DNA of 19,253 nt from Escherichia coli (lineage in GTDB: Bacteria > Pseudomonadota > Gammaproteobacteria > Enterobacterales > Enterobacteriaceae), in the NCBI RefSeq assembly GCF_003334335.1, contig NZ_QOWQ01000055.1, one strand, 5' to 3'. A program made the position numbers and the translations under genes. Positions 1,599 through 3,951 of this stretch are shown here, piece after piece. The notes below the pieces were generated by a model. The model was given only the letters and a program-made list of their open reading frames with translations, had not been told where the DNA came from and searched no databases. How positions within the stretch are numbered: the first letter of the stretch is position 1; each line of letters begins with the position of its first letter.

Positions 1599-1991
1599 TC
1601 ATTGATGCAATTCGTAGATTTGAAGAAGTTCAACTGCCACATTTTTATTTTTACTATCGCAATTTTTATACCATACCCATGCTTCCGTATTTTTTACTTT
1701 TTTTAAATCATCCATAATAAAATCCCCACCAAAAACAGTAAAATACAATGTTTCCTCATTAAAAATAAAACTCACTGCCCCCCCCTCTTTTATTTTAATT
1801 TCCGCTTCATTTGTGTTCAAATCAACTTTTTTAATTACTCCATGTAAGTTGGGTTTTGATAGTTTTTCTACGCCACCATCAGGAGCGGGTAATATACATC
1901 GTTTAAGAACTTTAGCATTTGCACATCCAATAACCCAAATTAGAATGCACACTCCCATGTTAATCGCATTAACGTGTCTTAAAACGTTCAT
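1599..1991 (-). CDS. Rhs-associated immunity protein, exported (signal peptide with possible lipobox VIGC)
   Basis: 130-aa ORF whose start overlaps the rhs stop by 23 bp (1969-1991), the typical toxin-immunity arrangement. N-terminus [26 protein letters not shown] is signal-peptide-like. AT-rich like the adjacent toxin domain. Confidence 0.6.
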
Positions 1992-3951
1992 ATCTAATTC
2001 TCTCTCCAGGATGCGAATACATCCAACTTGTCACTTTCTTACACAACTCATCTACATCTTCATTCTGTGCACGGGTACATCCCATAGTTGGTTTCCAGCC
2101 TTGTCGAGGAGCATAAGGATCGCGCAACGATGATCCCCCACCATGTAGCCATCTTGCTCTAGTATCTGTAGTATAGATCTTCGTTGTGCCATATGCTGCC
2201 GATATTCCTGATTCATTTGTCTCACAACCAACGACTTCACCTGTATATGGATCACCAGCACCACGTTGAGAACGACGATCAATTCTATTGCTACTATCAA
2301 AAGTCATTGAATCACCTGTTTCAGGATCATAATAAATAGTCACTCCTCCAGTCATATCAGTAAGAACAAGAGGAGTTTCAGCACCTGCCCGGTCTGGAGC
2401 GGGAGGCCCATATACACTTATAACTCGTTCTAACCCCAGTGGATCAGTGTAACGTATTGGTACCAGTGGATACGTGTATAGATTTATTCCCCCCTTCAAC
2501 CCTATCGGATCCTGGGTGATATACCGCCCCTGCAACGGATCGTAGTACCGGTGACGGTTGTAATACAGTCCCGACTCCTCATCATACTGCTGCCCCGGCA
2601 AACGGTACGGCTGGTACAGGTGATGCGGGTTCTCCTCATTAAGCTGGTTCCCCCACTCGTCATACTCCCCGCACCACGCCGTTTCGCCTTCCGGGGTGAT
2701 GAGCGCCTGCGGCAGTCCACGGTGGTCACAGTGGTAAAGATGCAGCCTCCGCTCCGGGATGTATGCATCCTCCATCTGCGCGGCCATCTGTTCCGCCGTC
2801 AGCCCGCACTGCGCAAGCCATGCCTCACTCTCCGCACTCACCGCTCCCGCACGCAGCTCCCGCTCCAGCCTTCCCAGCATCACCGCCAGCTCCGCCGGTA
2901 GCGTCACACCCGTGTCCTCCTGCAACACCTCCGCCAGGCTCCGGTGCCGCGCCTTCGCCTGTTCGCCATTCTCTGTTTCGATTCTCAGGAGCGGCGTGAA
3001 GCTCCCCGGCTGGTATACCGTCTGGATACGCGTGGTGCCGGTCTGTATCGTCGTCAGCCTGTCACCGTCCCACCCGTACCATGTCACCTCCGGTTTACGC
3101 GACAGCGACATCCACCCCGTCAGGTCACGCTCCCGCCGCCATACCCGTTTTCCCGTCCGGCGGCCCAGCGGGTCATAGAGGTACCGGCTCTCCACCTGTG
3201 GTTCGCCGTGCTGTATCCGCGTGTAGAACACCAGGCGGTGCTGGCTGTCGTAGTGGTAGTGGTGGGTCCGCTCGTCGTGCATCCGTATCACCCCTTCCGG
3301 GATGCGGTCCGTCTTCTCCGCCAGCCTGCCGTATTCATCGTGGCGGTAGACATAGTGCGCATCTTCCGCGATGCGGTTATCCGGCCATGCCGTGAGCGTG
3401 CTGTCCGGGTGCAGTTCCGGGTCCGGCAGCCGGTTTCCTGCCGGGTCCGTCGCATACGGGATATCGATATCCAGGTTCGCCGCCGTGGTGTGGACGCCCG
3501 TCAGCCTTCCCGTGTCGCTGTAACGGTACTCCCGGCTCTCCTGCGGGCCGCTGATGCGGATTAGCTGTCCGTTGTCGTTCCAGTCGTAGTCACGGTCAAG
3601 CTGCGGAAGGTTCAGGTGCCTGCTCCGGAGCTGGCCGCTGGTATTCCAGGCGGTGGCAAGTTCATATGCCTCCCCGCCGAAGCTGCGGGCCGTCTCACGG
3701 TGCAGCCTGTCCCGCGTGTACTCGACCAGCGGTGTTCCGCCCAGCTTCATCCCCGCAAGATAACCGCTGCCATACGTCAGCCACTCCACCGGCGGCAGAC
3801 CGTCCGGCTCCTGACGGGTCGCCAGCCCCTGTTCGCTGTACGCATGCCCCGTCTCATGCTCCCACAGCATCTCCCCCGTCTCCGGGTTCTCCACCGTCTG
3901 CCGTTCGCCCGTCAGGCGGCCTTTATCGTCATAGCCGTAGTGGACCGCCAC
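1969..3951 (-). pseudogene. rhs: Rhs protein, C-terminal fragment: YD-repeat core, DPLGL boundary, and 153-aa toxin domain with L,D-transpeptidase-like H/C motif
   Basis: 661-codon ORF with many YD-repeat motifs and the PxxxxDPxGL core boundary (DPLGL encoded at 2431-2445). Its frame continues upstream of the listed GTG at 3951 as [26 protein letters not shown], so it is the downstream part of one gene whose frame breaks near 4012-4031. Confidence 0.8.

Follow-up and report, generated by a model that had tools for sequence, protein, structure and literature searches.

The toxin class closest to the locus analysed here is Tox-LD-peptidase, an L,D-peptidase of the 1ZAT type with conserved H, S and C residues, found as the C-terminal domain of RHS-repeat proteins (Zhang, Aravind et al. 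2012, PMC3482391). The class is linked to the T6SS in beta- and gamma-proteobacteria, its toxin gene is followed by an immunity gene, and an attack on peptidoglycan was predicted (PMC3482391); the class itself is known by prediction. A functional precedent is provided by Tlde1, a T6SS effector with the L,D-transpeptidase (LDT) fold that kills from the periplasm via L,D-carboxypeptidase and exchange activities (10.1101/2020.02.18.954545; PMC9638812). Its member Tlde1a (Tae5) of Salmonella Typhimurium, an antibacterial DUF2778 protein (PDB 7UMA) with a catalytic His/Cys pair and disulfides, is toxic in the periplasm only and is neutralised by a periplasmic immunity protein. The Rhs-CT effectors of E. 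coli combine a PAAR-like N-terminus, an Rhs core and a variable toxin, with vgrG upstream and the immunity gene downstream (Ma et al. 2017, reviewed in PMC6730261). The tips named in that review, Rhs-CT1 to CT10, comprise metallopeptidase, DNase and RNase tips, and an L,D-transpeptidase tip is unmentioned (PMC6730261). Our literature search found no experimental study, biochemical or genetic, of an Rhs-YkuD tip.

Here we analysed a stretch of 19,253 nucleotides from E. coli (contig NZ_QOWQ01000055.1), referred to as the window. With a probability of about 0.8, we consider the locus to code for a polymorphic toxin, located at the C-terminus of a T6SS-associated Rhs protein, and for the corresponding immunity protein; the toxin is seen as a YkuD-type LDT-fold cysteine enzyme that would attack peptidoglycan in the periplasm and against which a lipoprotein would protect. 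The tip shares the Rhs-CT layout at the level of the locus and belongs to the Tox-LD-peptidase class, of which it is an uncharacterised member. The features of the window are as follows.

1..1168, minus strand: transposase gene (ISAs1 family, H-repeat) at the Rhs element's distal edge, running off the window (annotation of EC416 and 720632)
1543..1558, minus strand: hairpin resembling a terminator, with a T run behind it, 40 nt past the immunity stop codon
1599..1991, minus strand: candidate immunity gene, 130 aa, with a lipoprotein signal peptide and lipobox VIGC (Cys23 codon 1923-1925)
1972..2430, minus strand: Rhs C-terminal toxin tip, 153 codons, carrying the LDT-fold domain; stop codon 1969-1971
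2029..2331, minus strand: tip residues 34-134, the part that matches Pfam YkuD (PF03734, E=3.4e-5, 24.9 bits)
2077..2079, minus strand: Cys118 codon tgt (in TMGCTR), predicted catalytic nucleophile, invariant in 110/110 representatives
2143..2145, minus strand: His96 codon cat (in WLHGGGSS), predicted catalytic histidine, invariant in 110/110 representatives
2224..2226, minus strand: Cys69 codon, probable disulfide partner of Cys130 (codon 2041-2043), judged by co-occurrence
2431..2511, minus strand: end of the Rhs core, DPIGL (2511-2497), 17 residues, DPLGL (2445-2431), a conserved Rhs-associated core motif
2431..6047, minus strand: Rhs core pseudogene, missing ~51 codons at its start and with them the PAAR-like N-terminus, in two frames (ORFs 3984-6041 and 1969-3951)
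4022..4023, minus strand: 7-bp deletion causing a frameshift, one copy of a tandem GGTGAAC/ACGGTGA unit being lost (alignment with EC416 and 720632)
6061..6609, plus strand: C-terminal remnant of tssM (IcmF), directly adjoining the truncated Rhs gene (RefSeq annotation of the identical EC416 locus compared with the intact 720632 locus)

Boundary, fold and predicted active site of the tip

The gene, named 'RHS element core protein' in RefSeq, encodes a YD/RHS-repeat core that ends in the DPxGL...DPxGL motif and continues into a variable tip, the arrangement of an Rhs polymorphic toxin. The motif marks the boundary and the self-cleavage region, and a profile that covers DPIGL to DPLGL matches the corresponding region of solved Rhs proteins, e.g. 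Tse15 (8uy4) and S. bongori Rhs (8qjc). The DPLGL codons (gat cca ctg ggg tta, 2445..2431, minus strand), the His and Cys codons and the length of the tip are all as given, in the minus-strand reading, in an earlier note on this DNA. That note had also described the tip as AT-richer than the GC-rich core, and the composition agrees: the GC content falls from 0.634 (core) to 0.440 (tip) and 0.328 (downstream gene), and the corresponding GC3 values are 0.783, 0.222 and 0.246. The difference in GC3 between tip and core is counted as support for a horizontal origin of the tip. The N-terminal ~20 residues of the tip form a low-confidence linker ahead of the LDT-fold domain.

The YkuD-type fold, which had been proposed from a His/Cys motif with a Pfam search as a check, is borne out by the Pfam match itself, by the invariance of both residues and by structure comparison. 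The PF03734 match spans model positions 53-139 of 146, leaving the N-terminal third of the model unmatched, and the same family also matches 10 of 13 diverged homologs at E<=1e-3 (best 3.9e-6). The tip has the LDT beta-sandwich fold: its top PDB matches in Foldseek are Csd6, YkuD, Bd1075 and Ldtfm, and its AFDB50 neighbours bear the names L,D-TPase, YkuD or RHS proteins. Taking structural and profile matches together, the best are canonical YkuD enzymes (Ldtfm 1ZAT/6FJ1, B. subtilis YkuD, LdtMt2, Csd6, Pgp2, Bd1075, DpaA), housekeeping proteins that are Sec-exported, usually carry PG-binding or other accessory domains and show 7-16% identity to the tip. The characteristic target of the YkuD family is the mDAP3/L-Lys3-D-Ala4 bond in the stem peptides of peptidoglycan. 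Among PDB sequences, neither phmmer with the tip as query nor hmmsearch with the trimmed profile of the family detected a chain of an LDT or of Tlde1, and the untrimmed profile found Rhs core ends only. NCBIfam gave no match for the tip or for the immunity protein, and hhalign of the family profile against the single sequences of E. coli DpaA and the Ldtfm catalytic domain was not significant. In the hhalign comparison, the GC of DpaA was aligned with Cys118 of the tip.

The family comprises 340 clusters at 50% identity. In 109 of 124 representatives the domain lies <=20 aa from the C-terminus, in 50 of the 124 it follows DPxG[L..], and the long members are RHS/YD proteins. The same domain is also found fused to LysM (P0137, Acinetobacter proteins) and to PG_binding_1 (P0291), and there is a match to a PASTA-containing kinase (P0103). 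Two Acinetobacter effectors considered as carriers of the domain, given that LysM proteins of this genus share it, were rejected: Tse4 has an M23-type peptidase, and Tae17 has a CHAP amidase.

Residues H96, C118, G97-99, Q110 and N123 are invariant in the 110 family representatives, and Arg120 is kept in 108 of them. The motif follows the layout RWxHGGGS...[11 protein letters not shown], with the conserved segment T115-x-G117-C118-T-R120-x-x-N123, and 21 residues separate His96 from Cys118 (spacing 22, family range 20-33). The pattern H-x(14-26)-[ST]xGC[ILVT]RxxNx[DE] occurs once in a six-frame translation of the whole window. Considering the Pfam E-value and the invariant His/Cys pair, we regard the motif as more than chance. 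Together these data support the assignment of the tip as a divergent YkuD-type LDT-fold cysteine enzyme with His96/Cys118 as the predicted catalytic pair and Arg120 and Asn123 in a conserved CxRxxN segment.

The tip and the canonical enzymes share the catalytic segment HG...(S/T)xGC(I/V/T)RxxN, but when the tip family is compared with the canonical motif H-x(14-17)-(S/T)-H-G-C-h, only part of it is kept. The His and Cys are invariant, whereas the residue before Gly is variable and not His, so that the second His of the canonical (S/T)HGC (SHGC) is not conserved; this tip has TMGC. Because the His-Cys loop of 22 residues exceeds the 14-17 of the canonical motif, the chemistry of the tip may differ. 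The hallmarks of the family are this longer loop, in which Gln110 and Trp/Leu112 are invariant, together with a DxRxR motif and, optionally, a disulfide. The latter is suggested by Cys69 and Cys130, which are both present in 18 and both absent in 91 of the 110 representatives, with one alone in a single case; they probably form a disulfide pair, and their covariation suggests an oxidising compartment.

The overlapping lipoprotein gene and the proposed site of action

The ATG of the candidate immunity gene, preceded by GGAGAG, lies inside the end of the toxin ORF; the two genes share 23 nt, namely 20 nt of toxin coding sequence and the toxin stop codon. The 130-aa product carries a lipoprotein signal (PROSITE PS51257-type pattern, with Arg5 in the n-region) and is annotated in RefSeq as 'hypothetical protein' WP_001101839. 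Wherever the tip is found, an overlapping ORF of 130 aa with a lipobox is found as well. From its position and export signal, this lipoprotein is the candidate immunity protein. A Pfam scan at E<=10 returned a weak match to DUF4367 (E=4.6e-4) as the sole hit, and neither Imm16 (DUF2750) nor Imm57 was matched in that scan; these two, the latter mostly alpha-helical, are the partners of Tox-LD-peptidase, from which the lipoprotein differs. A homolog search retrieved E. coli-level relatives and close kin only, and a single-sequence AF2 model of the mature protein had a pLDDT of 34. Beside metagenomic tip homologs there are secreted proteins of ~200 aa; kinship between these and the 130-aa protein was considered, and on comparison they were unrelated. 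Altogether, the immunity candidates of metagenomic and distant tip homologs are three unrelated proteins, all with signal peptides. The downstream lipoprotein, the signal peptides in the immunity candidates of relatives and the co-occurrence of Cys69 and Cys130 point to the periplasm as the site where the toxin would act.

For delivery, substrate, chemistry and immunity we infer the following course. In intact loci (hcp-vgrG-rhs-immunity), the toxin would be enclosed in the Rhs cage and freed by self-cleavage at the DPxGL boundary, as other Rhs proteins perform, and the T6SS would carry it into a neighbouring cell. In the periplasm of that cell, its substrate would be the stem peptide of peptidoglycan: a thioester would form at the carbonyl of mDAP3 in a tetrapeptide, and subsequent hydrolysis (L,D-carboxypeptidase activity) or exchange would disturb cross-linking. 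The producer would be shielded by the periplasm-facing lipoprotein encoded by the overlapping downstream gene.

Three other readings of the toxin have to be weighed against this course. In the earlier note, Tlde1 was brought in for comparison; as an analogue, i.e. another LDT-fold T6SS effector, it stands, whereas membership of the tip in its family, DUF2778 (Tlde1a/b/c), with a shared L,D-carboxypeptidase/D-amino-acid exchange activity and Tldi1-type immunity, is very unlikely. Neither the tip nor its homologs gave a DUF2778 (PF10908) hit at E<=10, hhalign of the tip family against eight Tlde1 sequences yielded E 0.052 with a probability of 1%, and the spacing of 22 with the RWxHGGGS motif differs from the short H121...C131 and RLHP...GxSxGCIT-type motif of Tlde1a. 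The S. sonnei protein WP_052983304.1, an Rhs cited as Rhs-DUF2778, was absent among the tip-cluster members read, and the Tlde1 alignment contained no string matching it. A cytoplasmic, non-peptidoglycan target, with the LDT-like fold serving as a scaffold only, would suit the description of Rhs/PAAR effectors as usually acting in the cytoplasm (PMC12994826), but we consider it highly improbable in view of the exported immunity candidates of this tip and its distant homologs, the covarying Cys pair, the fusions of the same domain to LysM, PASTA and PG_binding_1 modules and the invariance of the full LDT catalytic constellation. An LDT-fold enzyme that works in the periplasm by another reaction, detaching Braun lipoprotein as DpaA/YafK does or creating aberrant 3-3 or other cross-links instead of trimming tetrapeptides, is unlikely, given that Tlde1, the sole characterised LDT-fold toxin, is a carboxypeptidase/exchange enzyme; our computation treats Lpp detachment, aberrant cross-linking and tetrapeptide trimming alike. 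Peptidoglycan attack in the periplasm, by tetrapeptide trimming or exchange, is the reading that we retain.

If confirmed, this reading would add a peptidoglycan-targeting Rhs effector to E. coli and Shigella sonnei and would indicate that a periplasm-active enzyme can be the cargo of Rhs cages, which are usually tied to ADP-ribosyltransferases and nucleases of the cytoplasm. In practice, the value of the finding is modest. The toxin class was predicted in 2012 and is already labelled in databases. A more far-reaching interpretation, which we offer tentatively, is that the tip family represents a second, independent recruitment of the LDT fold as an interbacterial toxin, from canonical YkuD and not from DUF2778, with a reaction possibly unlike that of Tlde1 (Lpp detachment, aberrant cross-linking), two or more unrelated families of exported immunity proteins not described before, and an Rhs cage delivering a periplasm-acting enzyme. 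With the same fold and different active-site loops and immunity proteins, Tlde1 and the tip family form a natural comparison, which could show how L,D-transpeptidases turn from wall builders to weapons and how small proteins inhibit them.

The decayed locus of the window and intact loci in E. coli

In the window, the Rhs gene is broken. Similarity to intact Rhs begins at residue ~51-52; the sequence upstream of that point is unrelated and has a stop codon close by. The same gene in EC416 is annotated in RefSeq as 'incomplete; missing N-terminus'. The locus is deleted for vgrG, hcp and tssB through most of tssM, and the tssM remnant marks where vgrG, hcp and the bulk of the T6SS cluster were lost. 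The earlier note did not see that the gene is broken. Strain 720632 has what is lacking here, an undamaged N-terminal region for delivery and a link to the T6SS and vgrG: its Rhs protein of 1414 aa bears an identical tip and is encoded immediately after hcp and vgrG.

With the N-terminus of Rhs and the T6SS lost and the reading frame shifted, the toxin copy in the window is probably not deliverable. It is quite probable that the feature is a relic, in which no toxin is delivered or fired and selection acts on the immunity gene only, against kin that still fire the toxin; the immunity ORF and its terminator are intact, and the immunity gene may be the part of the locus that is still useful. The same deleted architecture is common to ~408 of the 911 tip-carrying complete E. 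coli genomes. On the other side, the tip is 100% identical to the copies in intact loci and itself shows no visible decay, an ORF of 660 codons that starts with GTG (3951..1969) is still open, an assembly error could account for the 7-bp deletion, and the view is that of a 19-kb window, so that another T6SS or vgrG may exist elsewhere in the genome.

The tip and its immunity gene are present in 911 of 5426 complete E. coli genomes, approximately one in six. In the N-terminal part of the intact Rhs protein, Pfam matched RHS_repeat and DUF6531 and no PAAR domain, and a literal KPAAR string is present there.

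Fold, family and conserved residues of the tip

The Rhs gene ends in a C-terminal toxin domain, here called the tip, which follows the DPLGL boundary of the Rhs core and is followed by a candidate lipoprotein gene; residue numbers count within the tip. Direct reading confirmed the positions of DPLGL, His and Cys and the length of 153 codons proposed in the earlier note.

Features of the Rhs locus
about 6047 to 1969, minus strand: Rhs gene
2445..2431, minus strand: DPLGL boundary
2145..2143, minus strand: His96 codon, in WLHGGGSS
2079..2077, minus strand: Cys118 codon, in an 11-residue motif
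1971..1969, minus strand: tip stop codon, 153 codons after the DPLGL boundary
1991..1599, minus strand: small ORF after the Rhs gene (130 aa, putative immunity gene)

The tip had also been described as AT-richer than the core, in line with GC3 values of 0.783 for the core and 0.222 for the tip (0.246 in the downstream ORF), and its composition is foreign relative to the core. Across all six reading frames of the whole window, the extended His...Cys motif is found a single time.

On the strength of that motif, the tip had been read as a YkuD-type L,D-transpeptidase (LDT), and both the Pfam comparison and the structure prediction support this reading. YkuD (PF03734) matches tip residues 34-134 with E = 3.4e-5, with no other Pfam family on the tip at E ≤ 10, and is found at E ≤ 1e-3 in 10 of 13 homologs sharing 44-54% identity with the tip. 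The AlphaFold2 model, calculated from a homolog alignment, has a pLDDT of 81 and a pTM of 0.77, with most of the domain's interior above 90 and low confidence confined to the first ~16-20 residues and one loop. Foldseek searches with this model agreed with the LDT assignment against the PDB and, against AFDB50, returned E. coli "Core protein RhsG", "L,D-transpeptidase family protein" fragments, RHS proteins and LysM proteins. We estimate the probability of this fold and family assignment at about 0.9. The tip most likely functions as a cysteine L,D-peptidase or transpeptidase toxin directed against peptidoglycan; assigning any specific reaction would be tentative at best.

In a full HMMER scan of 1.84 billion representatives, 340 clusters passed E ≤ 1e-3 and 179 passed E ≤ 1e-10, with E. 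coli, Shigella sonnei, Acidovorax, Gallionellaceae, Lysobacter enzymogenes, Variovorax and Acinetobacter among the named sources. Of 124 near-complete matches, 109 have the domain at most 20 residues from the C-terminus and 50 have a DPxG[L..] motif ahead of it; the long members are RHS/YD-repeat proteins. His96, Gly97-99, Gln110, Cys118 and Asn123 are invariant in the 110 complete-domain representatives, of which 108 have Arg120 and 107 have Asp125; a His-Cys spacing of 22 is the commonest, within a range of 20 to 33.

Several metagenomic homologs (P0028, at 4001-4591 of locus L003; P0016, P0022, P0025) are stand-alone ORFs of ~190 aa, comprising a signal-peptide-like N-terminus, the last ~40 Rhs-core residues (ARYVxSDPIGL...DPxGL) and the LDT-like domain. 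They may be orphan tips whose hydrophobic start arose by chance, or else a mini-form exported by Sec; in L003 the neighbours are Transglut_core2, DctPQM and LysR genes, not T6SS genes.

Site of action and putative immunity

Four lines of evidence, namely the lipoprotein ORF, secreted neighbours of homologous toxins, a cysteine pair and module fusions, point to the periplasm and its peptidoglycan, which we consider the likely target. The downstream ORF overlaps the last 23 nt of the toxin ORF, stop codon included, with GGAGAG ahead of its start. It encodes a lipoprotein signal in which Arg5 and a hydrophobic stretch precede the lipobox V-I-G-C23, matching PROSITE PS51257; most likely, its product neutralises the toxin. 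In three metagenomic loci a signal-peptide protein of ~200 aa is encoded right after the homologous toxin.

Signal-peptide proteins after homologous toxins
L003, 4597-5190
L006, 3645-4253
L008, 2204-2821

These proteins constitute a separate family, not related to the lipoprotein of E. coli, and are candidate immunity proteins for the homologous toxins. They share four conserved Cys and a RIDDAVARExRDPRY-type motif, and have no Pfam matches on record. Cys69 and Cys130 of the tip occur together in 18 representatives, whereas 91 have neither and 1 has only one of them, a co-occurrence that, in representatives that are not phylogenetically independent, is the pattern expected of a disulfide. In other proteins, LysM repeats, a region matching a PASTA-domain kinase and PG_binding_1 are found fused to the same domain.

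Relation to known toxins

The class to which the tip belongs has already been predicted, and the tip itself is uncharacterised. "Tox-LD-peptidase" denotes an L,D-peptidase domain of the 1ZAT type (H, S, C) carried by RHS-repeat toxins, T6SS-linked, found in beta- and gamma-proteobacteria among others and partnered by Imm16/Imm57, for which cell-wall damage was predicted (Zhang et al. 2012, PMC3482391); the tip agrees with this description in all but its immunity partner. Fragments of the exact tip have already been named "L,D-transpeptidase family protein" by the NCBI pipeline.

Tlde1 (first called Tae5), the characterised T6SS effector of LDT fold, exerts its toxicity in the periplasm, shows L,D-carboxypeptidase and D-amino-acid exchange activities and is inactivated by H121A and C131A (10.1101/2020.02.18.954545; PMC9638812). 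By analogy, the tip may resemble it in outline of action, but it does not belong to the Tlde1 family: DUF2778 has no match on the tip in Pfam at E ≤ 10, hhalign of the tip family against the Tlde1 alignment from the JBC supplement was not significant, the predicted structure is less similar to Tlde1a than to housekeeping LDTs, and the His-Cys spacing is 22 in the tip versus 10 in Tlde1. Since PAAR/Rhs effectors usually act in the cytoplasm according to a recent survey (PMC12994826), a periplasm-acting Rhs tip would be somewhat unusual among them.

Acinetobacter proteins of ~530-650 aa (A0A9P3CTW0 and A0A5E9PI66 in AFDB, P0137, P0276) carry the LDT-like domain of the tip (41% identity) at the C-terminus behind LysM repeats, one partial copy being labelled lytic transglycosylase; their build recalls the modular T6SS cargo effectors of the Tse4/Tae17 type, apart from the last domain, which differs.

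Decay of the locus and its intact counterpart

Among 5426 complete E. coli genomes, 911 contain the 1.2 kb with the tip and immunity gene at coverage of at least 80%. In strain 720632, an identical tip ends a 1414-aa Rhs encoded directly downstream of hcp and vgrG, beside tssB and tssC. The N-terminus of this Rhs contains the literal string KPAAR as well as a DUF6531 domain, but Pfam gave no PAAR match there. In strains with the intact locus, the tip is most likely delivered by the T6SS.

In the window, the tip is unchanged and is part of a decayed locus. Similarity to the 720632 Rhs begins only at residue ~51-52, with unrelated sequence and a stop codon upstream, and the truncated rhs directly adjoins what remains of the tssM (IcmF) C-terminus (junction 6047-6609), implying that vgrG, hcp and most T6SS genes are gone; the deletion comprises vgrG, hcp and tssB through most of tssM. 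Beyond this tssM remnant come vasL, an hcp copy (7996-8478), a hypothetical gene and ykfM. The same architecture occurs in about 408 complete E. coli genomes. Strain EC416 is 99.95% identical to the window across the window's full length, and its Rhs counterpart is marked a pseudogene in RefSeq. Relative to EC416 and 720632, the minus-strand rhs has lost 7 bp at 4022-4023, one tandem ACGGTGA/GGTGAAC unit. The resulting frameshift in the core divides the gene between two ORFs, 3984..6041 and 1969..3951; apart from this loss, the window departs from EC416 only by one SNP near 8797 and by a 1-bp homopolymer change near 11115. Another deletion derivative is apparently P0101, a 672-aa representative joining the first ~215 residues of VgrG to the last ~320 of the Rhs core and the tip, as a fusion of vgrG to rhs.

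The window lies in the yafV/ISAs1 to dkgB/tRNA-Asp region of the E. coli chromosome, parts of the window being matched in all 5426 complete genomes. A terminator-like hairpin lies 3' of the immunity gene, and directly distal to that gene is an ISAs1-family (H-repeat) transposase (minus strand, 1-1168), with IS1414 beyond it in EC416; H-repeats are classic companions of Rhs elements. Two minus-strand tRNA-Asp(GTC) genes are present, one (11175-11251) at the inner edge of the T6SS remnant, fitting a tRNA-linked island, and the other (19178-19253) preceding an rrn operon and cut by the window end. On the E. coli chromosome, about 8 kb separate the Rhs locus from dpaA (yafK; 1206-1946 of L001, the 720632 locus), the gene of a YkuD-family enzyme detaching Lpp from peptidoglycan; this closeness is probably coincidental.
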